In this document: piece by piece, positions 10,020-42,760 of the stretch
How the letters are laid out: each line of letters begins with the position of its first letter
Position numbering within the stretch: position 1 is the first letter of the stretch
IMG/VR virus record: IMGVR_UViG_3300043449_000801
Coordinates: 1 to 58,493 of that record
Strand: one strand, 5' to 3'
Source of the DNA: a virus
Lineage: Duplodnaviria > Caudoviricetes
DNA length: 58,493 nucleotides
Program-made: the position numbers and the translations under genes
Notes under the pieces: generated by a model
Databases searched by the model: none
The model's input: the letters and a program-made list of their open reading frames with translations, nothing else
What the model was told of the DNA's origin: nothing

Positions 10020-13000
10020 TTACTTTCCATATTTGCTGTAGTAAATTTGAAATGCTTTATCAGATACTTTTTCACCTGATAACCCCATTATTTCTTGTAA
10101 GTAAGCCATTTCATCTCCACTCATTTTAGGACCAAACTCCATGTACAGCTTGTATGCTTGAACCTCTGGTACAGTTTCATATACGATATCTAACATTCCC
10201 TTATTTAAGTTTCTATTGCGAATGTATGTGTCATACTTTCTAACGTATTTCTCAACATCCTGTCCTTCAAAGTTATCTGTAATAATATCTGTCAATTCAC
10301 CGTATGACATCTCTTTTCCTGAATCGTAAACCTTATTGATTTTATTGTATATACTTTGTTCTTTCATCCATATTTCAGACTCAATACTAGTCTCCATATC
10401 TTTCATTTTGTCTTGTCTAACAAAACTTAATATGTCTGGATCCGTATACTTTACTAATTTATTTCCAGCAGACTCAATCATCAAGTTACCACATGCCTTT
10501 ATATCTTCTACAAAACCTGTTGCTCCGAACATGCCATTCATTGCTGCATATGCAATGTGGACCATTGGATTAGTAGAAGGAGATGTAATTATTTTCTCTA
10601 TGGCTACCTTTGTTTTTGCAGGAGACATTTTAAAAGCAGGAGCAATTACTTTATAAAACTCTTCTATTTTATTATCGTAAACACCTTGATACTCTTCTTT
10701 TATTTTTTTATCCCTTGGCTGCTTGAATATTTCTTTACCTGTAAATGTATCTATGTTATATGATAAAGCTATATATGCTGCTACGCCTGGATTTTTACCA
10801 GCTAATTCAGTAGGCCATATTGGCATTGATTTTTTAAATGTTTCATACATTAAACCTGTATCTACATTGTAATCACTACCACCCATTTCAAAAAACATTT
10901 TGTATGCATACTGTTCTATTATAGTAGTAAGTATAGATACAACAGGTAATTTTTTAATCTTCGCATATTGAAGATTTCCATCTTTATCTTTTTTACCTGT
11001 AAATACTACGTGATATCCAGCTTTTGTATGTGCAGGAACTGAATCAAGGGCATCTTTTAGCTTTCTCATTTTCTCCTCTTCATCATCTCCATCGATTGCT
11101 GATAATGCAACTGCTAATGAATAATATGCCATACCTCCAGTTGCTAATGCAACTTGCGACATACTAACTCCAAATGCAATTGGATTTTCTTTAGCAAACT
11201 TAAGAGACTTTCTAACACCTTGTGTTGAAGCATTCAAATAAGGCATTACAGGATCAATTGCTTTTATGGTGCTTCCTCCTTGACTAAAGTCAACAAGCTC
11301 CCTAGCTTCTCTAGCTGCATCCCACATAATATCATCAAGTGCCTGTCCTGTTGGCTCTTGACCGTTATTTTCTTTTTTGTATTTAGCAATAAGATTATTT
11401 TTTTGTTTAGAATATACAGCAATTCTCATCGCGAATTCAGACTTTGTACCTAAATAAGACATACATGCGCCAACTGCTAAGAATGGTTTTGCTACATATG
11501 ATTTAATAGAACCTGCACTAAGCATAGATTTTATTCCTACTATTCCATCTTGTGAAAGAAAATCAATAGCTCCACCATGCTCAACATACTCTCTATATAG
11601 TTTATTTTCATATTCTTCATTCATTATTGATCTAATGTCATCATAGATACCACGAATAAATTTCATTGAGAACCCAGTAGTTGCTTGAACTATTGCTAGA
11701 GGTTTAAACCAACTATAAACATTTGTTAGAAACGTAGCATTGAATATATCTACAGGAACGTTACCTATGATAAACAATGGGTTACCAACGGTTGCCATAT
11801 ATCTAAGTATACCTACTCCTGTAAATTGACCTACTTTTCTCATTTTGTTGTTTAATTCAACATTCTTTATATCAAGTATTTGATTAGCGTACATTGAATC
11901 AACAACCATTATCCTTTGTTGTCCATTAACAAAGTAAGTTATTGGAGTAAATCCTACCAACTCTGCTTTTTGATTAGGACCTGAGAAATCCCCTAGTTCA
12001 TACTTTTGTACAGGTCTACCATCTTTAGTTGTTTTTACTATCGGGTTTTCCTTTATATATTTTGATATGGCATCCTTTTCTTCTTGTGTAGCTGTTTCAA
12101 TTGCTTCTGCCCAAGCTACTAACATATCATTCTCAAATGCCCTTGCAGCTACCGTATGAATGTTCATCATTAGTAACCACCTAGAGTCCATGATTATATC
12201 ATTCTCGTTTTTGTCAGATAATGCTTGGATATCTTTTCTACTTACACCTAATGTAGAGGCTTGGCTATCTGCATTACCAGGATTAGCATTATCACCAATA
12301 ATATACTTAATGACTTTTATTGGAGAGTATTCTCTATCCTTAAATCTTAAATATGTTTCTTCATTTATACGACCAGATTCAAACAGAATTCTTAGGTTAT
12401 CATTAAACTCTAAGAAGTATCGTTTTGCTCTTTTGTTTAAATTATCAAAATTATTTTCTCCTATACTTTCTCTAATTCGATTTAAGTCAGCCATAGCATT
12501 GGCTTCATTATATCCATTTATACCTGTGTAGGGGGGTTTACCCTCGTTTCTTCTATTAACATTAATATCAATAATACGTCTAGCATAAATTATTTGATTT
12601 AATATTTCCAAAGACTTAGAGTCTAGTCCTCCGTACACTACTCTATCTATACGCTTAAACCTATAAGATGCGAATCCTGTTGCTCCAGCTTTAGTAATAA
12701 GCATATTAAAAGCTCGTTTGGCAGCATCATTCTTGATGCCTTTCATTAATCGCTTAATACCCTCTTGACGATCAAATATTGCTTTGTTTGCATATCGATA
12801 CGCCCTAACAAATATATTAGCATCGTATCTTCTTTTTAATGCATCTTGACTTTGCTTGTAAATTTCTTCAACAGTAATATCTTTAGCAGGCTTCATCTGA
12901 GTCATTGCCTGAATAATATCTGCATCACTAAATCCATTGTTTCTAAGGTATACCTCTATAGCATCGTCCTTAATATCATTAGCCCTAGCAGTAGCAACAA

Positions 13001-16000
13001 TGTAATCAATGTTGTTTTGCTTAGAGAATAATACTTGTAGAGACTTTATATTATCTGTTGTTATTTCTTTTCCTCCAAGTAAAGACGCTAGTGATCCATC
13101 AACAAATTGATTTAATGACAATTTTTGGAACTCTTCTGGAGACAAATTCTCAAATGCTTTGAACTTAGATTTAACATAATTGAATACGGCATTCAACCAA
13201 TTCTTAAATTTTGATTTTGTTCCGGCTTCAATTAAAAGTTCTCCACGACTTGCAATCAAATCGGCCATTGCTTCTTCTCTTGCTAATTCGTTATCTCCAA
13301 GCTCTTTAATTTTTTGCTTGAGTATAGATGTTCCTTCCAAGAGATCAAATCCCTTTTGTAATAATCCTGGATTATTTGCTCTTAAGAAGTTCATCCATAT
13401 GTGAGAGAACTCGTGTATGGCTGTATTAGAATTAGCCTTCTCAGGATTCAAGAATATTTTTCCATCAGTTGTAAATCCATATACTACTTCTCCATCCTTT
13501 ACAAATTGTTTTACATTAGGATCTTGTAAAGCAGCATCAAAATCTTCTTGAGTATCTACTATAGTAACTGTAGGAAAAGCTAACTTAAGCTTGGCTATTA
13601 ATTTTTGTAGTTCAGTCATCTTGTCAGATAACTTAGCTCCTACAAACGCTTTAGTTGTAGCTATAGCTCCAGAAACAGCGATTGATTGACTTATTGCTGA
13701 ACTTACACTAGGTAACTCACCACTTGTATTAGGTTTAAGCATAGCAAATGTTTTGCTATACATTTCAGGAAATACATCGGCAGCATGAACAGGATTCTCA
13801 AGAATACCTATTAGCTGTCCTTTCATACCAAAAGGATAATTACCATGAACCAATTCTCCTTTAGCAGCAGATGTAACACCTCCATTCAATACATCTATAC
13901 CCACGATAGCAATAACATGGTTAGGTGGAATTTTACTACTTGCTTCTTCTTGAATTATATTATTCAATGTTTGAAGGTGTATGTATTTATAGAATTCACT
14001 TCCTTTATTTCCAACTAATGCTAAACCAGCTTTACTTCTAGGTTCTCCAGGTTTTGTTTCTTTATCTAATTCAATTCCACCTGTAAATAAGAAATCTGTA
14101 ACTATCAATCTTTTACCTATTGGTCTTAACTTAGACATGTTATCTAAAAGCTCATCAATAGTTTTAAAGTTGTTTTCTTTAATGAATTTTATAACTACAT
14201 TTTCTTGTATTTCCTTTTTATATATTTGATTTGCTTCTTTCTCACTTAATAATTTTTTGCCTTCTTTTTTTCTTTTATTATTTTTAGATTTTACAGGTTT
14301 AGAAGCGATATCATCTATTAAACCGTTTAAAGAATCTGTCCTTTCTTTTTTATTAAAATTGCTTTTAATAGTATCAGATGCTAATCTAAATAGTGCCTCA
14401 TTTGTTTTTATTGATGCTTGACCCATTTTAACAACAGCCATAGGAATATGACCATTTGGAAGTTTTCCTTCAGCCCAAAGCCTATCAAATAAAGACTTGT
14501 TTTTATTATATATTTCTAATGCTCTTTTATATGTGTCCTTACTTGATTTTAAATCAGTATTTGCCCATGCATTATTTTCATTACCATCTGTCAGATTAAA
14601 TCCAAGCCCACCATTTATATCAATAGTATTTCCTGTGAATGGATTACTAACAGAACCAGATGAAAGCTGATCAGATATAGTGAATATAAAAGGAATACCA
14701 TTGTATTCAGAAATATTTTTTATTACACCTTTATTCCAAGCTGCCTTAAGTTTATTGCCAAATCTAGATATCAATGATTTGATATTGATTTTGTTTTTGG
14801 TAGTTAAATTAGATGGAACATCAAACTCAGCAAATTCTTCAGGAAGCTGATTCATTTCATCTGTTACTTCTTCTACATCTCCTGCATCTATTGCATTCTG
14901 TGGCTCCTGTTTTTCCTTCTTAAACTTAGGCGGAGTCTTACCAAGTAATGCATCAAGTTTAGCAACATCTGCATCAATATCCTCCTTAGTCCTAGGCTTT
15001 TCTTCCGTAGTTACTTCTTCTTCTGGAGCAACCTCTTCTTCTGCAACTACTTCAGCCTCTACAGGTTGGGCTGCTGCTGTGGGTTCAGCTGTAGGTTGTT
15101 CTCCTGCTGGTTCAACTGCTGCTGCTGTTGGTTGGGTTGCTGTTGGTTCAACTGTTGGTTGAGCTTGTACAGGTACTTCAACTGCTGCCGTTTCGACAGG
15201 AGCTGTAACTTCTGGAAGTTGGATAGACTCTGTTGCTGCTTGGAATTCTTCATCTTGTTCTAATAAATCGTTTATAAATTGCTGTTGTTCAGGCGTCTGT
15301 ATCTTTTGCAATTCAATTTGATATGCAATATCTACAGCATCCTGTCCGGTAAACATTTGAGTTTGTCCTGCATCATTTTTCAATGACACATTCATTACTT
15401 CTCCTGCCGGATTATATTCAATACCTTGAGTAGGTAGTTCCATCTGCATGTTCCAATTGTTTCCGTCAATTGAAACTTGACCTTGTGGAGTTACAGAAAC
15501 TCTTTCTTCTTGTACCTCAAGACCTGGAAGTTCAGAGTTCATCACCTCATCTACATTTCCAAGCTCGTATATCTTTCCAGAATCTCTGTCTTCAAATACT
15601 ACTTGCTGCCCTTCAACATAAACATCACCTGATAATGGAGCATCTAATTTAGCTCCTCCAAATGAAGTTAATGTAGCAGGTCTATTTATTACTTCAGAAA
15701 CAACTACTCTAGGTGTTTCTGTTGCTACTACTTCTTCCTCCCTGATGTCTTGCCCACCTTCTTGGGTAGTGACTTGAGGTTCTGCTTGGGGTACTCCTTG
15801 CGCCATTTCTCCGCTAACTTCGGCTTTTGGCTGAACAGGTACTTCACTTGTTGTTTGCTCTTGAACGGCATTTTCTGAAATTTTTATAAGTTCAACATTA
15901 ATTTCTGCAATCCTTCTCCTTTGAGGTGTGGCAAGACTTTCATCTTTATTCGCTATATATTTCTCTAAGTTAGCTTTTTCTGTCATTAAATCAAGTGCTA

Positions 16001-18986
16001 CAGACTTATCTTCTACACTCATATTATCAGGCATAGAATTAATCCTTCCTTGAATATCTTTAAATGAGTTAGAAATTTCTTTAGCTTGCTCCTTAGTATA
16101 CTTGCCACTAATTATACCTGCCTTAAGATTAGCCAATAGAGCTTGATCAATATTCTCCATCTTGGCGGCATTCATTAATACCTCAAGTTGTTCCTTATTT
16201 AAATTCTCTCTAAACTTATTTCCTGTTATTGTACTAGCAGTTGTAACCGTACTCATGATACCACCACCTAATGCACCTAGGTATCCTTCATACAATACAT
16301 CTGCATATATTTCTTTTGCGCTCTTATTGTTAAAGTAATCAGAGCCAACCATTCCGTCATATACCTCCTGTATTCCAATCTTTGATACAGCTTGAGTCAT
16401 CTCAGTTAATCCCTCACCTGCGCCTCCAATCAAGGCATCCATAGGTAAAGTGGCAAACATTTTCTTTGTGCTATTGACAATAGCTGCTTGAATAAATTCC
16501 TTTGATGCATTCTCAGGAATATCCATAAAGGCATCCTTAATAACAGCATGAGTTATTTGTCTTCCAAGACCTGTTTTTTGTAGTGCTAAGTCTAAACCAA
16601 ATTTTTCAAGTATTGAACTTACAATACCATATGTTCCAGCCATTAATACCTTAGATGTTTCTGATGGTCCAGCACCACTAGGATCTTTAATCATATCAAG
16701 CTCATCCTTCATCTCATTGTATGACTGAGCAAAGAATGATGCATATGTAGCAGGCCCTCCACCCATAGCAAGACCTGTAGTTAATGCTCCAAGTGATTCA
16801 CCTAAACTAAATATTGCCTTAGTAACATCGCTTCTATTTTTAGAGTTCATATACTCCTCTGTAGTATAATCTCCAGTAATAAAATTAATGATACTTTCTT
16901 GTTCTTTTTTAGTTAACATTCCTAATCTAGGTAATGCTGTTAATCCTTTAATATATTTTTTAGAAATACCACCAATGAAAGTACCTCTTGCTTCATTAAC
17001 AATATATTCAGCTGCAATTGATTCGTCTATTGATTTAGTAATAGTTCCTAGATATTTAGTCTCATCTTTTAAATCAACCCCCATTTGTTTTATTTCACCT
17101 TGGAGTTGTTCCATTTTAGGCTTATACTGTTCGTTGAACTCCTCTTCACTTATCTTTCCTGATCTGATTCGCTCATTTGCATCATCAGCATAAATCTGAA
17201 GAAGCTTCATTTTTGCATTATAATTTTGAAATGACTTATTTATATCATCTGCAAACTTACTTGCGTTACCTATTGTCTCTTTGTCATTAGGAAGATATGC
17301 AACCATATTTTCCACCTCTTTATCATCGTATGGATTCTTTCCGGTTTCAATTGCTTTCTTCTGCTTGTAGTATATATCACGAAGAACTAAATAAGATTCT
17401 CTAGCATATTCTTTACGAGCTAGTCTTTCTTTCTCTTCTAATTTAAACTTATCTTCTTTTGTAACATTAATAATTTTATCTAAAACCATTGGTTGTTGAT
17501 CTGGAAGTCTATCATCTATATATTCAGGATCGCTATATATAGCTCTTCGATACTTATAGTTAGGACCAACCCAAGCACTATTTTCTTTTTCAGCTATTTC
17601 AAGTGACTTAGATGCATCAGCTAAATCTTTACTAGAATTTACTTTAATAAATTGACGCAGTCTTCTTGCCTCTTCGCTATCTCCTGCATCTGTCCAGTTA
17701 TCAAGACTGATTTTAATTGTATTCTTCCCATCTGGTGAAACCACTTCTATAGCATCACCAAACATGTCAGATATGGTATCATAAGTTCTTCCAAAAGAAA
17801 ACGTAGGGAACTTAGCTTTAAGTTTCTTAATTACTACATCTTCTTCATTGCCTATAAGTGATGAATTAACTGATAACAAGTTTGTGTCAAACTCTTTCTT
17901 TTTAATTAACTCTACATCCTCAGCAACACCTGAAAACTTGTCTCGTGCAGCATCGTATTTTATCTGCTTATTGAATTGAGCATTCAATGCATCAATTGAA
18001 CCCTTTGAAGTAATCCTAAAGAAATCACTGTATCCTTTAGGACGCTTTTCCCAATAAGGTTCGTTTGTTGCTTTATCTACACCTATTCTATACTCAACGT
18101 CATCCTTTCCTGGATATCCTACATATGTTTGTTCAATCGTACTAGATGATGCATTCTGATTAAACATTTTGTTTAATGTAGCTACCCTCTTAGGATCCTT
18201 TACCTGTTTGTAATCAAATACGTATCCTGTCTTTCCTGTCTTTTCATTTTTATATGTAAGTGGCTTTCCGTTTTGATATTGAATTACACTTTCATTCCAA
18301 ACAGGTATGCCTGATTCAGTATAAACTAATTCATATTCTTTATCTGTTTTACCAGGTATAGTATATTTCTTAGGAGCTTCATACTTTTCTGCCTTTGGTT
18401 TTGTTTCTCCTGCAAGAACTTTACCTGCGCCTACTACAGCTTCAGTTATTTCTTTATTTATTTTTTGAGATACGCCTTCAGGAACAGTTGATTTTACAGT
18501 TGTAAATTCCTTAGTCTTAACAGGAGTGTATGTCTTGGCATATTTCTCTAGTGCAGAAATTCTACTTTTTTCGTTTATCTTAACGTAATTTCCTGTTTCA
18601 CCTAAATCAATATACCACTGATTATTTGTCTTCTTGTATACTGCATCTTCCCTTCCTGGATACCGATATGATCCACTAGGTTTAACAATAGACTCAACAG
18701 CCTTTTGTACTCCTGCACTAACTGCCTTCGACAACGCACCCGAAGAAGAAGGTTTTGCTGCCCCACTTCCAGGAGATGCCGTAGTGACTTTTTTTTTTGG
18801 TGGTTGAATGAATGCTGAACTAAAAGTATTAAAGTCAGTTGTTTGAAATATCTTAGCTTGTCTTCCTAAGTTATATAACTTCTTTATCTGATCTCCACTA
18901 GCTGATTTAAATGTGTTAAAGTCTGTGCTTTGTATTAAGCCAGATTGAACATACAAATCATACAGTTTCTTTAGTTTATCATTCAT
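10020..18986 (-). CDS. Giant (2988 aa) internal virion/ejection polyvalent protein with a zincin-like HExxH domain and LPD38-like C-terminus
   Basis: Last gene of the late operon after two ejection-like genes; IHEFSH...EEAMA; C-terminal VDFSQGG..PYLNASTQG. Confidence 0.7.
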   Translation of the reverse strand: MNDKLKKLYDLYVQSGLIQSTDFNTFKSASGDQIKKLYNLGRQAKIFQTTDFNTFSSAFIQPPKKKVTTASPGSGAAKPSSSGALSKAVSAGVQKAVESIVKPSGSYRYPGREDAVYKKTNNQWYIDLGETGNYVKINEKSRISALEKYAKTYTPVKTKEFTTVKSTVPEGVSQKINKEITEAVVGAGKVLAGETKPKAEKYEAPKKYTIPGKTDKEYELVYTESGIPVWNESVIQYQNGKPLTYKNEKTGKTGYVFDYKQVKDPKRVATLNKMFNQNASSSTIEQTYVGYPGKDDVEYRIGVDKATNEPYWEKRPKGYSDFFRITSKGSIDALNAQFNKQIKYDAARDKFSGVAEDVELIKKKEFDTNLLSVNSSLIGNEEDVVIKKLKAKFPTFSFGRTYDTISDMFGDAIEVVSPDGKNTIKISLDNWTDAGDSEEARRLRQFIKVNSSKDLADASKSLEIAEKENSAWVGPNYKYRRAIYSDPEYIDDRLPDQQPMVLDKIINVTKEDKFKLEEKERLARKEYARESYLVLRDIYYKQKKAIETGKNPYDDKEVENMVAYLPNDKETIGNASKFADDINKSFQNYNAKMKLLQIYADDANERIRSGKISEEEFNEQYKPKMEQLQGEIKQMGVDLKDETKYLGTITKSIDESIAAEYIVNEARGTFIGGISKKYIKGLTALPRLGMLTKKEQESIINFITGDYTTEEYMNSKNRSDVTKAIFSLGESLGALTTGLAMGGGPATYASFFAQSYNEMKDELDMIKDPSGAGPSETSKVLMAGTYGIVSSILEKFGLDLALQKTGLGRQITHAVIKDAFMDIPENASKEFIQAAIVNSTKKMFATLPMDALIGGAGEGLTEMTQAVSKIGIQEVYDGMVGSDYFNNKSAKEIYADVLYEGYLGALGGGIMSTVTTASTITGNKFRENLNKEQLEVLMNAAKMENIDQALLANLKAGIISGKYTKEQAKEISNSFKDIQGRINSMPDNMSVEDKSVALDLMTEKANLEKYIANKDESLATPQRRRIAEINVELIKISENAVQEQTTSEVPVQPKAEVSGEMAQGVPQAEPQVTTQEGGQDIREEEVVATETPRVVVSEVINRPATLTSFGGAKLDAPLSGDVYVEGQQVVFEDRDSGKIYELGNVDEVMNSELPGLEVQEERVSVTPQGQVSIDGNNWNMQMELPTQGIEYNPAGEVMNVSLKNDAGQTQMFTGQDAVDIAYQIELQKIQTPEQQQFINDLLEQDEEFQAATESIQLPEVTAPVETAAVEVPVQAQPTVEPTATQPTAAAVEPAGEQPTAEPTAAAQPVEAEVVAEEEVAPEEEVTTEEKPRTKEDIDADVAKLDALLGKTPPKFKKEKQEPQNAIDAGDVEEVTDEMNQLPEEFAEFDVPSNLTTKNKINIKSLISRFGNKLKAAWNKGVIKNISEYNGIPFIFTISDQLSSGSVSNPFTGNTIDINGGLGFNLTDGNENNAWANTDLKSSKDTYKRALEIYNKNKSLFDRLWAEGKLPNGHIPMAVVKMGQASIKTNEALFRLASDTIKSNFNKKERTDSLNGLIDDIASKPVKSKNNKRKKEGKKLLSEKEANQIYKKEIQENVVIKFIKENNFKTIDELLDNMSKLRPIGKRLIVTDFLFTGGIELDKETKPGEPRSKAGLALVGNKGSEFYKYIHLQTLNNIIQEEASSKIPPNHVIAIVGIDVLNGGVTSAAKGELVHGNYPFGMKGQLIGILENPVHAADVFPEMYSKTFAMLKPNTSGELPSVSSAISQSIAVSGAIATTKAFVGAKLSDKMTELQKLIAKLKLAFPTVTIVDTQEDFDAALQDPNVKQFVKDGEVVYGFTTDGKIFLNPEKANSNTAIHEFSHIWMNFLRANNPGLLQKGFDLLEGTSILKQKIKELGDNELAREEAMADLIASRGELLIEAGTKSKFKNWLNAVFNYVKSKFKAFENLSPEEFQKLSLNQFVDGSLASLLGGKEITTDNIKSLQVLFSKQNNIDYIVATARANDIKDDAIEVYLRNNGFSDADIIQAMTQMKPAKDITVEEIYKQSQDALKRRYDANIFVRAYRYANKAIFDRQEGIKRLMKGIKNDAAKRAFNMLITKAGATGFASYRFKRIDRVVYGGLDSKSLEILNQIIYARRIIDINVNRRNEGKPPYTGINGYNEANAMADLNRIRESIGENNFDNLNKRAKRYFLEFNDNLRILFESGRINEETYLRFKDREYSPIKVIKYIIGDNANPGNADSQASTLGVSRKDIQALSDKNENDIIMDSRWLLMMNIHTVAARAFENDMLVAWAEAIETATQEEKDAISKYIKENPIVKTTKDGRPVQKYELGDFSGPNQKAELVGFTPITYFVNGQQRIMVVDSMYANQILDIKNVELNNKMRKVGQFTGVGILRYMATVGNPLFIIGNVPVDIFNATFLTNVYSWFKPLAIVQATTGFSMKFIRGIYDDIRSIMNEEYENKLYREYVEHGGAIDFLSQDGIVGIKSMLSAGSIKSYVAKPFLAVGACMSYLGTKSEFAMRIAVYSKQKNNLIAKYKKENNGQEPTGQALDDIMWDAAREARELVDFSQGGSTIKAIDPVMPYLNASTQGVRKSLKFAKENPIAFGVSMSQVALATGGMAYYSLAVALSAIDGDDEEEKMRKLKDALDSVPAHTKAGYHVVFTGKKDKDGNLQYAKIKKLPVVSILTTIIEQYAYKMFFEMGGSDYNVDTGLMYETFKKSMPIWPTELAGKNPGVAAYIALSYNIDTFTGKEIFKQPRDKKIKEEYQGVYDNKIEEFYKVIAPAFKMSPAKTKVAIEKIITSPSTNPMVHIAYAAMNGMFGATGFVEDIKACGNLMIESAGNKLVKYTDPDILSFVRQDKMKDMETSIESEIWMKEQSIYNKINKVYDSGKEMSYGELTDIITDNFEGQDVEKYVRKYDTYIRNRNLNKGMLDIVYETVPEVQAYKLYMEFGPKMSGDEMAYLQEIMGLSGEKVSDKAFQIYYSKYGK

Positions 18987-21205: not shown

Positions 21206-21937
21206 TTAAGGAGAACTTTTAAATACTGATGACGATACTTCAAACAACTCAACCTCTGACCCTTCAAATATAGAAAGTTCTACTTGCATGTAGTAACCTC
21301 TAAGACCAAAAGATTCAGCTAAGTTGTTTTTTATGTATACGATATAATCACCCAATGCTGGAGACGCAACTAGAGAAAATGTCACAGATGTATCTGTGTT
21401 ACTAATTACTGTACCAATTAGTGTGAGTGAGTTTATGTTAATATCGTATACATATAGAGAATCTCCTGCACTAATATTACTATCAACATTTGCTAGTTCT
21501 ATAGTGTTAGGAGGAGTAAGACCAAGTACTTGACCAAGTCCTTGTGTGTACAATTCGTGTGAGTCGTTTGTACCAGCAACGCTTCTAATGTAAGACATCC
21601 ATGAGCCTTCTTTCTCAAGGAAATAAGTAGAGTCGTTGTATCCATTGCTTAGGTCAGTATTAAACGTAGCACTCCAAGGATGTGTACTCTCTAGCTCAAG
21701 TGTCTTAAACATCTTATTCTGAGTAGGTTCTTGGTTGAATACTGTTGTTATAACCGATGGGTAACTAACACCATAAAAACTGTTGCGACTACTGTTTGAG
21801 TCATGCTTGTATAATTGACCCTGCTTCCATGTATAAAATGAACTATTTAATCCTAACATCCAATCTGGATTGTAACTCCAAAAAGAAGTCCAACCGTTAG
21901 ATGATGGAGAAAACGTTATTGTATTAGGATTTGGCAT
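21206..21937 (-). CDS. Tail protein; resembles the C-terminal part of a nozzle/stabilization protein
   Basis: TITFS...GWTSFWSY.PD, KMFKTLELE, GLRGYY motifs. Confidence 0.6.
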   Translation of the reverse strand: MPNPNTITFSPSSNGWTSFWSYNPDWMLGLNSSFYTWKQGQLYKHDSNSSRNSFYGVSYPSVITTVFNQEPTQNKMFKTLELESTHPWSATFNTDLSNGYNDSTYFLEKEGSWMSYIRSVAGTNDSHELYTQGLGQVLGLTPPNTIELANVDSNISAGDSLYVYDININSLTLIGTVISNTDTSVTFSLVASPALGDYIVYIKNNLAESFGLRGYYMQVELSIFEGSEVELFEVSSSVFKSSP

Positions 21938-21941
21938 AGTA

Positions 21942-21949
21942 CAAAGGTA
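21942..21949 (-). promoter_or_regulatory. Bacteroidota -7 promoter element TACCTTTG, 4 nt before ATG
   Basis: Matches TAnnTTTG; intergenic. Confidence 0.65.
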
Positions 21950-21955
21950 GTAAAT

Positions 21956-22870
21956 TTATACCAAACAACTATTGACAGACTTCATTGCTTGGTAGTACAT
22001 GTATGAACATCTACTCTTGTCTATGTCCAATGTTTCCTTGAATGGAAACTTATCTATGTATGCAGCTTTGAAGAACATTCCTTGACTCGCATTAGGTACT
22101 CCGGCATTATGGAAGAAGTGTACATAGTCCCACCTCTCAGATGGACATGTGGCCCAACAGAAGTCAAACTCCCTTGGCACAACAATCTCGTGTCCCCTTC
22201 TCCACGCTACCCATAATTCTGCCCACATACTTGCAGTCCAACATTGGATGCCATACGGATCACCTTCCTTCTTTAGATGGCTCACACTTCTTAGGTATGT
22301 GTATATGTCTCTGCATCCTTTATAGACCTCTGCCCAATAAGATGCATCAATATTCTTCATCAGCTTCTGTGCGCCACCAGAGTTTTCTTGGTTAGCCTCA
22401 ACTACTGAACGCTCTATGCCTATTATTTGACACATGCCGTCAAGTATAGACTCATCCTTGCTCTTGATGTAGTTGGCTCCAATATAGCTGATAGTATCAC
22501 TGAAGTACCACTTATCGTCATTTAGGAAAGGAGTAAAGTCGAAGTACCTAGTAAACAAGAAGTCACAGTCGTGGAAAAATACAGAGCAGTCTTTAAGGTA
22601 TGTGTGTTGCTTGAAGTGCTTCTCTAGTATATGTGCCTGTATTGCAGGAGGATAGTCGCACTCTCCCATTGTGTCTTGGTATATGTATATACCTACGTCA
22701 GGGAAGTTTTCCTTTAGCTTGTACCACGAATCAGGAATCTCTTCTAGGTATCCTGCCACTACGTGTATGTCCTCTTCCTTATATCCTAATGATATGAAGT
22801 TGTGAAGGTAGACCTCAACCTGCCAAGCGTAATAGTCTATTGCAGGTTGAGCTGAAATTAATTTTAGCAT
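21956..22870 (-). CDS. Putative glycosyltransferase resembling peptidyl O-glycosyltransferases (GT95 HPAT / GT96 SERGT1-like)
   Basis: YYAWQ, DYPP, DxD (HDCDF), WTASMWA and late FFH motifs in the expected order. Confidence 0.65.
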   Translation of the reverse strand: MLKLISAQPAIDYYAWQVEVYLHNFISLGYKEEDIHVVAGYLEEIPDSWYKLKENFPDVGIYIYQDTMGECDYPPAIQAHILEKHFKQHTYLKDCSVFFHDCDFLFTRYFDFTPFLNDDKWYFSDTISYIGANYIKSKDESILDGMCQIIGIERSVVEANQENSGGAQKLMKNIDASYWAEVYKGCRDIYTYLRSVSHLKKEGDPYGIQCWTASMWAELWVAWRRGHEIVVPREFDFCWATCPSERWDYVHFFHNAGVPNASQGMFFKAAYIDKFPFKETLDIDKSRCSYMYYQAMKSVNSCLV

Positions 22871-25740
22871 GTTATTGAATTACCGGTCCAATCGTTACCA
22901 TCCCACTCGTAAGCAACAAAGGTATTAATTTGCCGGTAATATGCAGCATCTGCAAGTATATAATTTCCAAGATATAGTTGATACAACTTATTTCCTATTA
23001 CACCTAGTGCTCCGTCTGCAAATCTTTGAACTACAACATCAGTACATACAGATGATACCGAGCCTTTTCTTGCATATATTGTAGTTAATGGAGGAAGTGT
23101 AGTAGTTGTGGTTGTGCTTGTAGTTGTACTTGTAGTTGTGCTTGTAGTTGTTGTAGTTGTTGTAGTGGTCGTAATACCTGTACAATCAAAACAACTAGCA
23201 TAAGTAAACAATACCATTGGTACAGCTGGTGCAAATGAACCTATATTAACTATAGTATAGCAGTTACCATCGTCACACTTAACTACTGTAGTATTTGGTA
23301 TTATACTAAATGATTGTTGTGCAATTGTAGTAAGACCCATACCTCCACATATTCTTGCTAAATAGTAATTAGTAGGAACAGTTGTAGTTGTGGTTGTAGT
23401 TGTAGTTGAACAAATAACAAAGTCTAATACCTGTCCTGTAGATGATATTTGGATAGACCAATCTCCACCCATTGTGGGTACATTGTACCAATATCCATTA
23501 CCTACTACAGGTACAGTTCCAAGTGAATCTGAATAAACAAAATCATTTATAGTTGGTAATGCTGATACCCCATTGTGATAGAACACTGTATATGGTCCTC
23601 CTGTGTTACTACACGCATCGTATGCTGATGCATATTGGGTAGGATCCATATTAAATGACGTGTATACAGGTGCTGTAGTAGTGGTTGTCGTAGTTGTTGT
23701 AGTAGTTATACCAAGACAGTCATTACAGTCAATATATAAGTTAACTGGATTCTCTATTGTTTGATATGGGAACGATGCTGTTGTAACGCCTGTTATTTCC
23801 CAACAGTTACCATCAGTAGTCTTAACATAATCACCTACAACTATTCCAAATGTGGTTGAGTCAAAAAGAACGGCTGTTACTGTTGGGTCAGTACATAGCG
23901 TTGCATCAAACCAATCTCCTGTTGGAAGGGTAGTTGTCGTAGTAGTTGTGGTAGTAGACGTAGTTGTTGTTGTGACCGTAGGACACTCGTTCTTTTCACA
24001 TACGTTACCTGTCTCACATATCTTAATAGAGTATGTAGAGTGGTCGATGTGATACCACTGACCTCCTCCCATAAATTTGGTCTGAGCAGTAGCGTCTGTG
24101 TATATAGTGTCATTTACATCTGGAACTCTTCCTTGTCCATTGTGATACAACAAACTATAGATTGGTGACACAGCACATGCAGCGTCTCCGGTATCTCCAA
24201 AGTTTTCTACATCAATAGCAAAAGGTGTTAACTTAATACCTGTTTGTATGACGATATTTATATCTTTCGTGGCACTAGGCCCAGAGCAGTTTGAAGCTCT
24301 TAATGTTAACGGGAAAGTACATGACTCTTCAGGAATACCTGTAATATTTCCTGTGTCAGCAGAGAATGTTAGACCTTTAGGTAATAAGAACTCAGGACAT
24401 ATTTTGTCAAAAAGAGTACTTATACCATCTCCAACTACAACTACTGGATCTCCACTTGTTGAACAAACATACACAGGTATATTATCTACTCCTACCGTTA
24501 TGTTTTGTGAATTTCCATAACAATCTGTATAGGTATACAATGTGCCTCTTGTTCCTCCTGTTAACTCATATGTTTCGCACGTTGTAATCAACTGCCAATT
24601 AGTAGGATTTCCAGATGCTTGTAAATATATATTAATTGACTCACCTTCAGTTAGATATATGTCATCTTGATAAATGAATGGAACAGCTGCTTCATTGCAG
24701 TCACACGGTCCGTGTAAAGTAACCAATCCACTTTCATTAACAAATGTGTATATTCCACCACTTACTGGTGGAGATACCATTACTGTATCGCTTACTATAT
24801 GATAAGCATTTTCACCATTATATAGTGTGGATCCGATTGAATCTGTATATATAGTATCACCAGTTACAGGATATGTACCAGAGCCATTATGCCAATATTG
24901 AGTTGTTGCTGTTTGAGAACATGCTGCAGACACGTCTGCACCAGGCGTTGTATCAATATAAAATGTTTTTAGATATGTATTTACTTGATTTAATACATAA
25001 GATGCCACAGATAATGGCGCATATACTGTAAGCACAGCCTTTGGTTCTTCTATTATTTTTTTGAATAATAATGAACCTGTGCCGTTGTCTACTAATCCAT
25101 CATAAGGAAATACTAGATTAATTTCGTCTTGACTTATACCTGCTGCAAGTAATGAAGACACATTTCCAAGACTATTTAATCCTATGTATCCAGTGTCAAA
25201 TATTGTCTCATTATTATACTCAAGTACATATCTACATGGTCTAGCTAATGTTTGATAGTCAACACCTGAAATACCTCTTCTAGTACCATAGTCAATGCTG
25301 ATATACCTTGTAGATGGGTCACCTGTATAAGATGCTATACCGGAATTTAGATTGTCTTGATAATCCCATATTAGATACAGGTTGTCGTAGTCATTTGGAT
25401 TACTAAATACGAACGACCCTTCATACCTTCCTCCAACTAGTGCTACAGGAACGGCTGTAGCCAATGATATCATTAGGTCTTTCTGAGTGCTGTCATATAC
25501 TTCATTAGTAACTAAGTAATACAGCTTGTTATTCAATGAAGGCTCAAAGTTTTTCAATGAAGGATCAGCGTTAATTAACCCCGTATATGCAGTAACAGTA
25601 GCCCCATCATAAGGCATGAAGTCAATTCCTCCAATACCTGTTAATGAATCAAATAAAGCTACTTGTGACGGACCAAGCTCGATATTGTTTATATCGAAAT
25701 TTGAGCTTCCTGTATATGAAAAACCTTGATTAGTAAACAT
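22864..25740 (-). CDS. Virion surface/tail appendage protein with an Ig-like domain, Cys-rich repeats and four poly-Thr tracts
   Basis: LPKGLTFSADTGNITGIP (He_PIG-like), three HNG..P...D..Y.D repeats, Thr runs; located in the tail cluster. Confidence 0.7.
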   Translation of the reverse strand: MFTNQGFSYTGSSNFDINNIELGPSQVALFDSLTGIGGIDFMPYDGATVTAYTGLINADPSLKNFEPSLNNKLYYLVTNEVYDSTQKDLMISLATAVPVALVGGRYEGSFVFSNPNDYDNLYLIWDYQDNLNSGIASYTGDPSTRYISIDYGTRRGISGVDYQTLARPCRYVLEYNNETIFDTGYIGLNSLGNVSSLLAAGISQDEINLVFPYDGLVDNGTGSLLFKKIIEEPKAVLTVYAPLSVASYVLNQVNTYLKTFYIDTTPGADVSAACSQTATTQYWHNGSGTYPVTGDTIYTDSIGSTLYNGENAYHIVSDTVMVSPPVSGGIYTFVNESGLVTLHGPCDCNEAAVPFIYQDDIYLTEGESINIYLQASGNPTNWQLITTCETYELTGGTRGTLYTYTDCYGNSQNITVGVDNIPVYVCSTSGDPVVVVGDGISTLFDKICPEFLLPKGLTFSADTGNITGIPEESCTFPLTLRASNCSGPSATKDINIVIQTGIKLTPFAIDVENFGDTGDAACAVSPIYSLLYHNGQGRVPDVNDTIYTDATAQTKFMGGGQWYHIDHSTYSIKICETGNVCEKNECPTVTTTTTSTTTTTTTTTLPTGDWFDATLCTDPTVTAVLFDSTTFGIVVGDYVKTTDGNCWEITGVTTASFPYQTIENPVNLYIDCNDCLGITTTTTTTTTTTAPVYTSFNMDPTQYASAYDACSNTGGPYTVFYHNGVSALPTINDFVYSDSLGTVPVVGNGYWYNVPTMGGDWSIQISSTGQVLDFVICSTTTTTTTTTVPTNYYLARICGGMGLTTIAQQSFSIIPNTTVVKCDDGNCYTIVNIGSFAPAVPMVLFTYASCFDCTGITTTTTTTTTTSTTTSTTTSTTTTTTLPPLTTIYARKGSVSSVCTDVVVQRFADGALGVIGNKLYQLYLGNYILADAAYYRQINTFVAYEWDGNDWTGNSITC
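23098..23980 (-). repeat. Four poly-Thr coding tracts (approx. 23098-23172, 23381-23407, 23674-23707, 23930-23980)
   Basis: Runs of ACN codons with mixed third positions. Confidence 0.9.
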
Positions 25741-25741
25741 A

Positions 25742-28700
25742 TTAATTATTAATTTTTGGTGGAGGGTCGTGATTGACTACTACATTCAAAACAATAGGCT
25801 TAGAACGCCCTTGAATTAAAGTAAAGTAAACCATTTTATCACAATATGAAACTCTGAATATTATAGACCTAACAGCACCTGAATTATTTACCGCTACGTC
25901 TGCAAATATATCTGATGATTGGTATCCTGATGTTTGAAATCCTGTAACCCAGTTAGTTCCAAATCCATTATCAACTAATGCTAGTGACCAATTGACATCT
26001 GTGATGATTGTGAAGAGATTAATATTATTTCCACCAAATTTACCAACAGACCATTGGTTTCTGCTTAATGCAAGAGTGCATCCTAGAATTGTTATACTAT
26101 TGTTTGATAAAGTATACAATTGATTGTTAGGATCGTATGCGCCAAGTTTTTGTGTATTTGGATAATCTCTCAACAAGTCAATAAAATAATCCTTCATTCC
26201 TGTATCAGATATTTCTACTACTTGATTATCTGATAGCGCAAGTACTACACCTCTTCTAGCATCCGTAAAGAATGACTCAGATCCCCATGTAGCAAACGAC
26301 TCAGGATTCTTACTTATTCCGTACTCATGAGGGAACATTACTTGATTGCCTAATACTTGTGGAATAGAAGCAATAGATCCACCTCCTGAAGCGTCTGATA
26401 GGATATTCTTTTCATAAAGAACCACACTTATTTTATCCTCTTGAAGAACAAGGATATCAGACTCTCTAGCATAAAGCTTTTGAATGGACCCATATTCACC
26501 ATCTAAGTACTTGAAGTTAGCTGTAGATAGATTGAACTCGTTTAACCTATTTACTCCTGTATTCTCTCCCAATATGCTACTATAACAAATAGCATTCTTG
26601 CTTACTTTTCTTCCGTAGCTATCAACAATTGCTGATGTTCTAGGGCTATACTCCAAAGTAAATCCATTCCAGTCATCCCTTATCCTATTTGTTTCAAGAC
26701 CATTAGCGTAAGCCCATGCATTGAAGTCAGAGTTAACCGTAGCTCTAGGATTATTAAGAACTACCTTTGCTCCTAATAAAGATGTTTGATTTTGCTCAAA
26801 TGCATCATATCCTGCTGTACCGGCATACGGAGTTGTGTATGCAGGCATTATATAGTCAACAATTACATTGTATGGGTCTGGAGTACTTATTATCTCATAG
26901 TATCCATTCGGTAAGTTTGGATTACTTGACTTTACATATATGCTCTCACCAACAACATACTTATGCATTTGATCAGTAGTAGGTGTTGAACCAGGTACTA
27001 ACTGACCTAAGTTCGTTTTACCAACTAATGTTGATGGACCAGATGGGACTATTGTAGCATCAGCGAATGACCATAGAACAGTATGTAGATTGTTTCGTAT
27101 AGGAAATGTTCTGCTTAGTTCATGGTATATGTTCAAGTCATCCTCTTCTGGAACTGTCTCTGCAATCAATGAATTGTCAAAACGTTTCACTGTAATAGAT
27201 GCCGACATTCTGTTAAAACCTTCTCCTTGTGAAGTATATGGAATAATACTACCCCTAATCAACATGTACATTGGATTAGTAACTATGTTCGAATAATTTC
27301 CGAATATAGGACCAGTATTTATTGTTGTATATACTACATCTATAAAGTTATTTAATTGTTGTCCTTGATAAAAAGTACTAACATTTACATTTTGTGATAA
27401 AGTATTAAAGTTAGATCCCCTCCTAAATGATACAGCTGTTTTATTTAATTGTACTCCTGCTGCATCTGTGTATGAAAAGTTCAAATAAGTTCCAGATTCA
27501 ACAAACCATTCTTCAATGTTTTCATATGTTCCATTGCTGTAAAATGTTTGTATATAATCTGATGCACTTGGATTTAATAATTCATTTATTTTTATTTCAA
27601 TAATGTCACCAGGAAATATTTCAGTGTCATTATATATACTAACCGCCAATGGACATATTGGCGCACCACTTTGATGTGGTTGATTTGGAACAAAATAATT
27701 ATAATTTATATTCCCTCTTAAATTTATTTTCCAAACATCACCTATTGATGGTTGTTGATTCCATACAATCCAAACACCTAATGAATTATTTTGACTAAAT
27801 ACAGTTCCAGCAGAAGTAACATTAATCCAATATGGAGTATTTATTGAAATATTACTTGTTGTCCATGAACCACTTAAATCAACTGCTGTTGTCCATCTAA
27901 ACTGAGTATTGCTTATTACTTGTACTGTAACTCTATAGCTACTATTTGCATTATACTTATTTGGAGATATAGTTGGATTTGTTGGTGGTGATGAAAGTGC
28001 TAATGCTGTTGGATTTGATTCCCCATAATATATAGGATTTTCAGCATATTTTATAGTTTGATTTCCTACAGATGTAAATTGTGTTGTTGGTGTATATGAA
28101 GCTCCATAAGATTCTGTATAGTAAGTAGTTAATCCTAATGTGTTGTTTAATTCGTATGCAGAATCAACTTTTATCTTAAAGTAAAGTCCTGCTTGCGCTC
28201 CATTGATAAAGTTTGTAGGTTGAGATTTTAATTCTAATACCTTATACTTTTTATTTACAAATGTTGGCCCTGTAGCAGTACACTTAAAAATAATATACCC
28301 TCCCACAGGAATTTTATCTTTATCAGATTCATGTATTAAGAAATACCTAAACTGATCTTTAAGATAAAAGTATATAGGGAATATATTATAATAACTTCCC
28401 TTTCCTTGCTTGATAACTAACCTATAGTTAGTTGCCCACTGAGGAGGTCTATTTGCTATGTTTACGGTTAAACTATTCCCCTTGTTTGACTGAGTAGGAG
28501 GTATGTATACAGTACTCGCATTATTTAGATTGTCAGGAGCTAATACAGTAGTTGTTCTTCCGTAGTCATCTAGGTATTGGATACCTATTTGGTAATCTCT
28601 GTCAGATCTAAATGTTTGTATTGGCGCACCTTCATCAAGTATGTCAAAAGACTTGTACTTGACAGATAATACAATCTTCTCAAACACATCATAAAACTGA

Positions 28701-29752
28701 GTGTAGTTACCATACATTATTCTATTACCAACATAATCCTGTGCCTTAGCTAACAATGGAACATTGTCAAAAAGCCTAGTTAGTTGCTCAGGAGATAAAA
28801 CAGTATATGTTTTATCATTACTGAACTTGTATTCGGTATATATGTTGTCAGATATGTTTGAGTTTTGTTTATTTATAGTGTCAACTACAAAGGTATTTAA
28901 GCTACGAGCATCACGCATGATTATCTGTATCTCCTTCACAAACTCATTACCTGTAAACATAGTAATGTATGCAAGGTTATACCTATTGAGCATGGCCTTA
29001 TTAAACCCTGCATTGTAGTCAACCAAGTAATCTTTTGCTTGAAATGCTACAGCAGAGAATGGAGATAACGAACTATATTGATTATCAACATACTTATACC
29101 TATAAGAAAAGTATAAGAACCTATCCTCCATGTTGTTTGCTTGGTCAACCAAGTTAGGATCTTCTGTATTCTCAAAGCGTAGCTTTGGAGCATTCAATGG
29201 AGGAGCCATAATAACATTAATGTCTTGGTCAATGCGTGGATCATCAACTGCATACCCACCATTACCATTAACATCTGCTTTTACTCTTGATATGTTTATC
29301 TTTCTTGGTGGATTATAGTTATCAGTCCAATAAAGAAAACCATTTACATAGTTGATTCCAGTAACAATAAACTCCCTATTGAAATTAAGCTTACTAATAC
29401 TTGAAGGAGTAGCTTTGTTAGACTGTAATACCCTAACTATGTTTCCAGATATTTCATTGTATTCGTAAATACCATCAAATTCATCAGCAGTAACAAGCCA
29501 ATAGATAAGATTATCCTTCTCACTTGCTACAGCACCGATAGTCCTAGCGTTTGTTAAATTCCTATTAGTGACATTCGCAAGGTTACCAATTAAGATGTTA
29601 CCCTTCTGATTTTTTACAGCACCAATATTTCCTGAGTCAGCACTATCAACACTTACGTTTTCAGCATGTCTATATACTCCTTCAGGTATAAGCCTCTCAT
29701 CGAGGTCTTTATTCATGATACCTGTTACAAATGTATTTTTTACTTCAGGCAT
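25742..29752 (-). CDS. Tail nozzle/stabilization protein (P22 gp10 / crAss-like)
   Basis: N-terminal F..GIMNKDLDERL..G.YR.A.NV; LYWTDNYNPPRKIN; C-terminal GSIQKL, YGISKNPESFA, FFTD.RRG. Confidence 0.75.
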   Translation of the reverse strand: MPEVKNTFVTGIMNKDLDERLIPEGVYRHAENVSVDSADSGNIGAVKNQKGNILIGNLANVTNRNLTNARTIGAVASEKDNLIYWLVTADEFDGIYEYNEISGNIVRVLQSNKATPSSISKLNFNREFIVTGINYVNGFLYWTDNYNPPRKINISRVKADVNGNGGYAVDDPRIDQDINVIMAPPLNAPKLRFENTEDPNLVDQANNMEDRFLYFSYRYKYVDNQYSSLSPFSAVAFQAKDYLVDYNAGFNKAMLNRYNLAYITMFTGNEFVKEIQIIMRDARSLNTFVVDTINKQNSNISDNIYTEYKFSNDKTYTVLSPEQLTRLFDNVPLLAKAQDYVGNRIMYGNYTQFYDVFEKIVLSVKYKSFDILDEGAPIQTFRSDRDYQIGIQYLDDYGRTTTVLAPDNLNNASTVYIPPTQSNKGNSLTVNIANRPPQWATNYRLVIKQGKGSYYNIFPIYFYLKDQFRYFLIHESDKDKIPVGGYIIFKCTATGPTFVNKKYKVLELKSQPTNFINGAQAGLYFKIKVDSAYELNNTLGLTTYYTESYGASYTPTTQFTSVGNQTIKYAENPIYYGESNPTALALSSPPTNPTISPNKYNANSSYRVTVQVISNTQFRWTTAVDLSGSWTTSNISINTPYWINVTSAGTVFSQNNSLGVWIVWNQQPSIGDVWKINLRGNINYNYFVPNQPHQSGAPICPLAVSIYNDTEIFPGDIIEIKINELLNPSASDYIQTFYSNGTYENIEEWFVESGTYLNFSYTDAAGVQLNKTAVSFRRGSNFNTLSQNVNVSTFYQGQQLNNFIDVVYTTINTGPIFGNYSNIVTNPMYMLIRGSIIPYTSQGEGFNRMSASITVKRFDNSLIAETVPEEDDLNIYHELSRTFPIRNNLHTVLWSFADATIVPSGPSTLVGKTNLGQLVPGSTPTTDQMHKYVVGESIYVKSSNPNLPNGYYEIISTPDPYNVIVDYIMPAYTTPYAGTAGYDAFEQNQTSLLGAKVVLNNPRATVNSDFNAWAYANGLETNRIRDDWNGFTLEYSPRTSAIVDSYGRKVSKNAICYSSILGENTGVNRLNEFNLSTANFKYLDGEYGSIQKLYARESDILVLQEDKISVVLYEKNILSDASGGGSIASIPQVLGNQVMFPHEYGISKNPESFATWGSESFFTDARRGVVLALSDNQVVEISDTGMKDYFIDLLRDYPNTQKLGAYDPNNQLYTLSNNSITILGCTLALSRNQWSVGKFGGNNINLFTIITDVNWSLALVDNGFGTNWVTGFQTSGYQSSDIFADVAVNNSGAVRSIIFRVSYCDKMVYFTLIQGRSKPIVLNVVVNHDPPPKINN

Positions 29753-42622: not shown

Positions 42623-42760
42623 TTATCTTCCCTGTCGATTATACGACTTAGTGTAGTTCTTACTACTCTTTAGCTTAGATGTTTTGCTCTTAGCATGAAC
42701 TCCAGGACGGGATACTTTGTACTTTCCTACCCTTACAACATTTGGTGATTTAGATGCCAT
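42623..42760 (-). CDS. 45 aa very basic protein (absent from ORF track)
   Basis: MASKSPNVVRVGKYKVSRPGVHAKSKTSKLKSSKNYTKSYNRQGR; fills the gap and overlaps the endolysin stop. Confidence 0.65.
   Translation of the reverse strand: MASKSPNVVRVGKYKVSRPGVHAKSKTSKLKSSKNYTKSYNRQGR

Follow-up and report, generated by a model that had tools for sequence, protein, structure and literature searches.

A stand-alone GT-A-fold glycosyltransferase encoded beside a threonine-tract muzzle protein in a crAss-like phage: a candidate virion O-glycosylation system

The viral record IMGVR_UViG_3300043449_000801 (Duplodnaviria; Caudoviricetes; positions 1 to 58,493, the whole of which is referred to here as the window and is estimated to be 96% complete) carries two overlapping genes on the minus strand. 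The first (22864..25740) encodes a 958 amino acid (aa) virion protein with four long threonine (Thr) tracts and the second (21956..22870) encodes a 304 aa stand-alone protein modeled as a glycosyltransferase (GT) of the GT-A fold. On the basis of sequence comparisons and of a predicted structure, it is considered probable that this 304 aa enzyme O-glycosylates the Thr tracts of the phage's own virion protein. The two open reading frames (ORFs) share 7 nt, ATGCTAA, in which the ATG of the 304 aa gene falls inside the final sense codon and stop codon of the 958 aa gene. An earlier note made from the letters of this DNA had described the tract protein as overlapping the start of the 304 aa gene, and both the coordinates and the overlap were confirmed. 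Its description of the 958 aa product as a tail-cluster protein was also right, and can be sharpened to part of a split crassvirus muzzle protein.

An AlphaFold2 (AF2) model of the 304 aa protein had a mean predicted local distance difference test score (pLDDT) of 96.0 and a predicted template modeling score (pTM) of 0.93, with an alternating strand-helix core as expected of a single Rossmann-like alpha/beta/alpha domain. Foldseek returned 188 matches to this model in the PDB at E<=1e-3, and the top matches listed were all GT-A transferases, among them the UGGT catalytic domain (E 4.7e-7), LgtC, the xyloside xylosyltransferase XXYLT1, WbbM, blood-group GTA/GTB and glycogenin. VIA-align, which is independent of Foldseek and was run over 48,161 representative chains, found 108 chains at Z>=8, the top 32 rows being filled by glycosyl- or sugar-phosphate transferases. 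These chains included LgtC (Z 14.8, root mean square deviation (rmsd) 3.4 A, 233 residues aligned), glycogenin (Z 14.4 and 14.1), Skp1 alpha-galactosyltransferase (14.1), UGGT (13.8), WbbM and LARGE1 (both 13.5), a GT8 protein of Anaerococcus (13.1), GlyE of Streptococcus pneumoniae (5gvv; 12.8) and the capsid-glycosylation transferase of PBCV-1 (2p6w; 11.4). The matches from both searches therefore identify the 304 aa protein as a GT-A enzyme, the fold on which the earlier note had staked its proposal. As modeled, it is a GT-A-fold glycosyltransferase with GT8/GT24-type enzymes nearest to it. We take LgtC, glycogenin, UGGT, XXYLT1 and LARGE1 to be the retaining enzymes numbered GT8/GT24 in CAZy, and a retaining stereochemistry is suggested for the modeled enzyme by its nearest folds alone.

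In sequence, the 304 aa protein matches phrog_4417 over its full length (E 4.3e-62, residues 2-300 on profile positions 1-292 of 293), a family annotated as 'unknown function', and it has no match to a Pfam family at E<=1 or to NCBIfam. The motifs singled out in the earlier note, namely YYAWQ (aa 13), DYPP (aa 72), HDCDF (aa 100, with D101 and D103 forming a DxD), WTASMWA (aa 211) and a late His, are all present, and an alignment of 58 family sequences (29-72% identity) shows them to be invariant or nearly so. In that alignment W16, Y73, D103, M215, W216 and H254 are invariant, with Q17, D101 and W211 conserved in at least 90% of sequences. The same conservation pattern was seen in two further family alignments and the motifs are thus not a product of chance. 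The late His corresponds to H254 in FFHNAG, and Q168 and K268 are likewise invariant or nearly so across hundreds of divergent sequences. The DxD is located in SVFFHDCDF, straight after strand 96-99. In the GT8 enzyme LgtC a late His completes the metal site, and from the pattern of conserved residues it is predicted that D101 and D103 bind a divalent metal, as H254 probably does too. The maximum 19-aa hydropathy of the protein is 0.82, with no membrane segment predicted.

The family comprises 456 near-length homologs when clustered at 90% identity and 805 clusters at 50% identity, and it is present in only 77 of 50,697 phage records. Longer forms account for 80 of the 150 best family representatives, and 24 of these 80 have a second recognized GT domain before or after the family domain (GT2, GT6, GT7C, GT25, GT29 or Gly_transf_sug). 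In one representative of 658 aa (P0144) the family domain is fused to a radical-SAM/SPASM enzyme. A separate radical-SAM/SPASM gene (1844-2911 of locus L084) adjoins a poly-Thr ORF on an unrelated viral contig. This association hints at further modification of Thr-rich or glycosylated tracts.

The earlier note had likened the 304 aa protein to plant GT95 and GT96 enzymes. This specific assignment is not supported: the Pfam HPAT model (GT95, PF23452) is not matched by the protein, the nearest solved folds are retaining enzymes of the GT8/GT24/GT6 type, and a solved GT95 or GT96 structure was not among the structures matched. The best HPAT match in the family was that of a distant representative, P0210, at 21.9 bits against a cut-off of 23.9 (E 1.3e-4, collinear over residues 9-242 on profile positions 9-230 of 307). 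It was the only match among 70 representatives and none was found in the 83 relatives of P0210, for which no precomputed HPAT annotation exists either. At E<=1, HPAT was found in two of the 58 family members, and at E<=10 nothing was detected in 10 phage genomes carrying the family. A very distant kinship of the family with HPAT is possible from these alignments. The likeness to GT8 is structural only, as Pfam Glyco_transf_8 matched neither the 304 aa protein nor any of the 58 family members. Searches of the PDB sequences with family profile A1 gave TAL-effector repeat noise only, and with profile A3 gave chondroitin synthase 3 at a non-significant E of 1.5-2.1 over the DxD region. Alignment of the family with the fused GT2, GT2/7C and GT6 domains by hhalign in local mode gave probabilities of 0.2-3.8% even though the DxD motifs align (global mode was not meaningful). 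The feature neighbors in the ESM Atlas were unnamed viral clusters, one cluster with HPAT on 10% of its members, and DUF7164.

The presumed substrate consists of a muzzle middle piece (aa 1-589) followed by a Thr-linked extension (aa 590-958; 22867..23973, minus strand) in which four Thr tracts alternate with four small Cys-containing domains. Tract 1 covers aa 590-604 (15 residues, 23929..23973), tract 2 aa 679-689 (11 residues, 23674..23706), tract 3 aa 778-787 (10 residues, 23380..23409) and tract 4 aa 857-881 (25 residues, 23098..23172), all on the minus strand, for a total of 56 Thr and 5 Ser, or 61 residues. The Thr codons within the tracts are mixed (ACA 25, ACT 21, ACC 6 and ACG 4), with similar usage outside the tracts in the same gene. 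Tandem Repeats Finder detected only short, imperfect arrays in the tract DNA (23929-23970, 23674-23707, 23380-23408 and 23102-23166, respectively). The tracts are therefore a feature of the protein and not a simple DNA microsatellite. When the 115 stop-to-stop frames of 80 aa or more in the window were scanned, a run of eight or more Thr/Ser residues was seen in the 958 aa ORF alone, with runs of 6-7 occurring in two other frames. Internal BLAST comparison related domain D1 to D3 and D2 to the core domain at aa 505-586, with D4 being unique. Homologs of the extension (query aa 605-958) were found in the same phage clade only, and this search gave no functional label for the small domains.

To examine how far enzyme and tracts go together, 67 loci (L001-L067; 63 viral contigs and four named phages) picked solely for encoding a homolog of the enzyme were used. 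In 61 of these, an ORF with a tract of at least eight Thr/Ser residues lies directly upstream on the same strand (54 detected by script and a further seven on inspection), against a background of 21 tract-bearing ORFs among 432 other same-strand ORFs of at least 150 aa. Once the tracts are masked, 14 families without sequence relationship can be distinguished among the partner proteins; the number drops to 11 without the loci that had themselves been picked for poly-Thr. In L040, L041 and L043 the tract protein is encoded two genes upstream of the enzyme gene, and in L052 three upstream proteins have TTTxEP repeats. Locus L052 (1851-7938) is part of a 321 kb jumbo-phage contig and, like L058 and L064 (5233-7972), contains two to three consecutive, extremely Thr-rich genes upstream of the enzyme; these runs of genes include the TTTxEP repeats and proteins in which the tract residues exceed 100. 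Some large phages may thus possess entire sets of mucin-like virion proteins.

A second line of evidence comes from the clade of the window phage. Eighty loci were taken through the N-terminal part of the muzzle, and the muzzle region was complete in 25. Of these, 14 have both the enzyme and the tracts and 11 have neither, with no mixed cases. The C-terminal extension is missing in all relatives examined that lack the enzyme. In one such relative (L070), the homolog of the 958 aa protein ends with ...CETGKVCDIYTCP, precisely where the window protein enters tract 1. Two other muzzle loci lacking the enzyme have insertions of equal length which contain no tracts. No copy of the enzyme was found genome-wide in two relatives lacking it at this locus, the genomes of which are 97% and 100% complete.

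A similar pattern was seen in Firmicutes siphophages. Tail proteins homologous to gp50 of phage phiFL1A share a core ...PGE(T/K)xG(D/E)(Y/F)..., and end in a Thr run in both phages with the enzyme (phiFL1A and R3.3) and in none of six without it (Javan47, 315.6, Javan311, phiJL-1, cIP1 and SPP1). A whole-record search found no enzyme in those six phages, with R3.3 as positive control detected at E 1e-96. Homopolymeric Thr tracts were found in 15 of 17 named phages that encode the enzyme. The tracts are borne by the major tail or major capsid protein, by a small decoration-like protein, or by a small ORF that overlaps the end of a structural gene. Interrupted repeats are present in SAC12B, in which an Ig-domain protein with (TTVKP)n is encoded directly upstream of the enzyme gene, and in LP65, in which (TETQTQTQ)n repeats are found in the two genes directly upstream, gp050 and gp051 (annotated structural protein). 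Among the cultured carriers of the gene are Lactococcus phages 1706 and CHPC836, Lactobacillus phage iLp84 and Enterococcus phages phiFL1A and VPE25. The co-occurrence that the earlier note had proposed to look for was accordingly borne out, with homologs tightly linked to Thr-tract virion genes in unrelated phages and with joint gain and loss.

It should also be mentioned that small frames consisting almost wholly of Thr tracts were observed overlapping or following the 3' end of a major tail or capsid gene, immediately before the enzyme gene, in Staphylococcus phage SA2 (L204, 7670-7933), Arcanobacterium phage TPWB06 (L208, 7723-7929), Enterococcus phage VPE25 (L207, about 7725-7880, unannotated) and Enterococcus phage Planchet (L378, 6745-6888, unannotated). 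These look like C-terminal extensions made by programmed frameshifting (cf. SPP1 gp17.1*), which would place a long Thr tail on a minority of subunits.

The association extends to bacterial genomes. A scan of these detected 134 relatives, of which the best 80 were examined. A Thr-tract ORF lies within 3 kb, mostly directly upstream, in 42 of the 48 stand-alone copies that could be evaluated. In a quick maximum-likelihood tree, nearly all fused copies without tracts grouped in a single clade of Bacteroidota (30 rows, support 99). Two other clades stood apart from it, one of Bacillota phages and prophages, in which 43 of 45 have tracts, and one of aquatic phages, to which the window protein belongs. 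The fused clade comprises two-domain forms of 530-900 aa on chromosomes of Chitinophaga, Pedobacter and Sphingobacterium (loci L224, L229, L230, L232, L233, L236, L237, L240-L242, L249, L254 and others). In the opposite direction, 60 viral loci were taken for which the sole selection criterion was an ORF with 10 or more Thr in a row, and the enzyme family was found within 2 kb of the run in eight, each time directly downstream. A GT2 enzyme is encoded nearby in four further loci of this sample, and a radical-SAM/SPASM enzyme in one.

A number of points weigh against the proposed glycosylation of the tracts. The acceptor is not proven by the shared fold, and the sequence-level ties of the family to known GT families are weak. 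Among the loci picked for the enzyme, L039 has no tract partner and neither does L053, the contig of which ends upstream. In the reverse sample the family is not within 2 kb in 52 of the 60 poly-Thr loci, and Thr runs therefore exist without the enzyme family. Six of the 48 stand-alone bacterial copies lack a Thr-tract neighbor, and just one of 27 fused two-domain copies has one; the tract link is a property of the stand-alone phage form and not of the whole family. In addition, the Fisher values of 8e-53, 2e-13 (bacterial stand-alone against fused copies) and 2e-7 (muzzle loci) are uncorrected for shared ancestry and overstate the case, because many of the loci are close relatives and not phylogenetically independent.

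Three other explanations were weighed against glycosylation of the tracts. It is unlikely that the enzyme acts on the tracts with a different chemistry, such as sugar-1-phosphate transfer in the manner of Stealth/GlcNAc-1-phosphotransferases or the transfer of another nucleotide-activated group. Weak Pfam Stealth_CR2 matches were found in four of the 58 family members (best E 0.0019), and the VIA-align matches include the Stealth-type proteins GNPTAB (Z 10.5, 10.2 and 9.9) and CpsY (10.1) as well as nucleotidyltransferases of the same superfold (Z 9.4-10.1), all within Z 9.4-10.5. However, the 304 aa protein itself has no Stealth match, GT8/GT24-type glycosyltransferases score clearly higher (Z 13-14.8) and fill the top Foldseek matches listed, and the fusion partners of the family are ordinary sugar transferases. 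A DxD with a late His is also the classical metal site of GT-A enzymes, which counts against this chemistry.

A slightly less likely explanation still is that something else is glycosylated, for example phage DNA, a host envelope glycan or another site on the virion, the tracts then being plain flexible linkers. Phage glycosyltransferases are best known for DNA and host-serotype modification (PMC12619734), and a C5 cytosine DNA methylase is encoded in the window (4399-5862, plus strand). The fused chromosomal clade has no Thr-tract neighbors, so the fold can evidently serve other acceptors. These points stand against the joint gain and loss of enzyme and tracts (no mixed cases among the 25 muzzle loci, and two of two against none of six for the tail proteins) and against the 14 unrelated partner families in which tracts are the sole common feature. 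Moreover, the enzyme gene is always in the structural module directly after the tract gene, with the start/stop overlap in the window, and a gene for 5-hydroxymethylation or of TET type was not found among the window ORFs scanned. The lowest probability is given to the 304 aa protein being an inactive GT-A-fold chaperone or lectin that binds the Thr tracts, perhaps after their glycosylation by the host, and aids folding or assembly; this is considered highly improbable. The close coupling of the two genes, genomic and probably translational, would equally be typical of a dedicated assembly chaperone, but pseudo-enzymes usually lose their metal and nucleotide-sugar motifs, and here these (D101, D103, H254, Q168 and K268) are the residues kept across hundreds of divergent sequences. 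To our knowledge, no host cytoplasmic Thr O-glycosylation system is available that could supply the substrate of such a lectin.

The favored reading, in which the enzyme glycosylates the tracts, leads to the following proposed sequence of events. The muzzle genes would be transcribed together late in infection, and the enzyme, expected to be soluble and cytoplasmic, would be translated in step with the Thr-tract protein. From the start/stop overlap it is proposed that enzyme and substrate are made together and that the tracts are modified before assembly. With a host nucleotide sugar as donor, and with D101/D103 and probably H254 as ligands of a divalent metal, the 61 Thr/Ser hydroxyls of the tracts would be decorated before the muzzle is assembled, the target being the 369-residue extension on the free C-terminus of the muzzle middle piece. 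No second glycosyltransferase was detected among the 7 + 35 window ORFs scanned; a single sugar per site, or its extension by host enzymes, is thus the simplest expectation, and longer chains would be built by those relatives with fused extra GT domains. The product would be stiff, hydrated, protease-resistant 'bottle-brush' stalks holding the four small domains off the tail tip, with six stalks per virion if the muzzle is hexameric as in crAss001. The earlier note had claimed a phage system that glycosylates its own Thr tracts: the GT-A fold and the tract linkage are strongly supportive of that claim, and the attachment of sugar to Thr, the donor sugar, the six-fold copy number and the biological benefit are parts that we infer.

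In other phages the same enzyme family would act on Thr tails of major capsid, major tail and decoration proteins and so give a coated head and tail tube, with glycan tufts on each capsid and tail-tube subunit in Firmicutes phages. A more general proposal is advanced tentatively, as one that may well not hold in full. This is that a Thr run plus one small enzyme constitutes a portable 'glyco-tag' repeatedly adopted by crAss-like podophages, Firmicutes sipho- and myophages and jumbo phages, such that any Thr-tailed virion protein would be glycosylated. The resulting mucin-like brushes on capsids, tail tubes and tail tips would shape adsorption, stability and recognition by host defenses or animal immunity. 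The six glyco-stalks of the present crAss-like phage could then make the first contact with the Bacteroidota host surface, possibly being caught by host glycan-binding surface proteins.

The closest precedent in principle is the glycosylation of mycobacteriophage virions (Che8 gp108-110, Corndog and Myrna), in which, as cited in two papers (PMC12619734; PMC12363180), the C-termini of capsid and tail-tube subunits are modified by glycosyltransferases that the phage itself encodes, forming a glycan shield. The logic is the same as that proposed here, and the kinds of target protein are the same as in the Firmicutes phages. The enzymes, however, are unrelated: Che8 gp108 is a GT2 plus methyltransferase, gp109 is GT2-like and gp110 is a GT25, and alignment of the present family with them by hhalign gave probabilities of only 0.41%, 0.10% and 0.10%, respectively. 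The Che8 targets end in the short sequences ...NKTGS and ...YSDGS and have no Thr runs, and the Che8 GT genes are located at the far end of the genome, whereas the window GT directly follows its presumed substrate gene. Mycobacterium phages are absent from the 77 phage records with the family.

Among the enzymes compared, those of the GT8/GT24 type (LgtC, glycogenin, UGGT, XXYLT1 and LARGE1) are the best structural matches over all 304 residues (Z 13.1-14.8, rmsd 3.4-4.2 A, 210-244 residues aligned; Foldseek E 5e-7 to 1e-4). A DxD after the central strand is common to them and the 304 aa protein, the late H254 may correspond to their late His, and the acceptors of several are proteins or glycans bound to protein. 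The sequences are no more than 7-14% identical, though, and the window family has its own invariant motifs, YYxWQ, GGAQ, WTAxMW and HNAG. We know of no match of the GT8/GT24 type that acts on poly-Thr.

The glycosylation of serine-rich-repeat adhesins in Firmicutes also resembles the proposed system, in that long repeats rich in Ser/Thr are O-glycosylated in the cytoplasm by dedicated enzymes whose genes adjoin that of the substrate, and with GlyE as a fold match. Adhesin glycosylation is initiated by GtfA/B, a GT-B (GT4) pair, and GlyE presumably acts after GtfA/B on the adhesin PsrP. It differs in concerning a bacterial adhesin with a dedicated secretion pathway, whereas the phage has a single stand-alone GT-A enzyme. 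Plant GT95 (HPAT) and GT96 enzymes likewise transfer sugar to hydroxy-amino acids in repetitive proteins, and P0210 is collinear with HPAT, but the plant enzymes are Golgi membrane proteins and the window protein and nearly all of its relatives have no HPAT match. The Chlorella virus PBCV-1 provides an example of a virus-encoded GT-A enzyme, with a fold match (2p6w), whose cytoplasmic substrate is the capsid protein of the virus itself. PBCV-1 is, in contrast, a eukaryotic giant virus without Thr tracts, its capsid glycans are N-linked and atypical, and its structural likeness to the 304 aa protein is below that of the GT8 group.

Literature searches found no description of phrog_4417, of poly-Thr tails on phage proteins or of glycosylation in crAss-like or Firmicutes phages, and, as far as the searches reached, virion glycosylation by phage-encoded enzymes was found for mycobacteriophages only (the supplements of a mycobacteriophage study may name further phages). 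The principle would be as in mycobacteriophages; judged from sequence, what appears new is an unrelated and much more widespread enzyme family together with a distinctive, easily recognized acceptor tag. Carriers of the family are found among crAss-like phages, among Enterococcus and Staphylococcus phages of relevance to therapy and among the dairy phages of Lactococcus and Lactobacillus. If the reading is true, it would give a function to many 'hypothetical proteins' and a meaning to unexplained Thr tails on capsid and tail proteins. Surface glycans would then have to be taken into account when the host range, stability, pharmacokinetics or antibody recognition of phages is considered. For glyco-engineering in bacteria, the pairing of a brief Thr tag with a cytoplasmic enzyme of 300 residues would be attractive as a tool. 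The prediction is directly testable in cultured phages such as Lactococcus phage 1706 and Lactobacillus phage iLp84.

The genes flanking the pair belong to the muzzle. Upstream, in the same operon-like run, lies the N-terminal piece of 1336 aa (25742..29752, minus strand), which matches Pfam crAss_MUZ (E 2.8e-11, 42.7 bits against a curated cut-off of 27) and phrog_14478, a virion structural protein (E 9e-171). Directly downstream of the 304 aa gene, a 243 aa protein with the muzzle C-terminal domain (21206..21937, minus strand) matches Pfam crAss_MUZ_C (E 7.2e-18, 65.3 bits against a curated cut-off of 27) and phrog_18548. The 958 aa protein is itself matched in three stretches by phrog_21885. 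In some relatives the counterpart of its residues 1-586 is a separate ORF of 586 aa, and in relatives L071-L075 it is joined to the N-terminal part of the muzzle to form one ORF of 1779-1787 aa. Consequently, the 958 aa protein is the middle piece of a split muzzle with an extra C-terminal part. The muzzle of the window phage is thus divided over three ORFs of 1336, 958 and 243 aa (21206-29752, minus strand), and L070 has three ORFs without the extension.

The portal, large terminase and other virion proteins are encoded further upstream, in keeping with the virion module of a crAss-like phage. With phmmer, the 958 aa protein and its muzzle neighbors gave no direct match to a solved crAss001 chain, and a solved-structure search gave nothing for the 958 aa and 1336 aa proteins; an importin match of the 243 aa protein in that search was rejected as spurious. 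In the crassvirus structural atlas (PMC10172136), the muzzle is a hexamer at the tail tip, with a distal domain that probably touches the cell surface and that differs in length through insertions.

Elsewhere in the window, a 2988 aa ORF (10020-18986, minus strand) with no Pfam or PHROG match and a zincin-like HEFSH motif may encode a giant virion cargo protein of the crassvirus kind. In addition to the cytosine methylase, a ThyX thymidylate synthase is encoded at 57647-58291 (plus strand). A GroEL-type chaperonin gene (48099-49688, minus strand; Cpn60_TCP1, E 9e-52) and a GroES-like co-chaperonin gene (41040-41603, minus strand; phrog_13932) were also identified. The window phage has two types of cell-wall hydrolase, namely an amidase_2 protein (42750-43445, minus strand) and a glucosaminidase-domain protein (56246-56791, plus strand).

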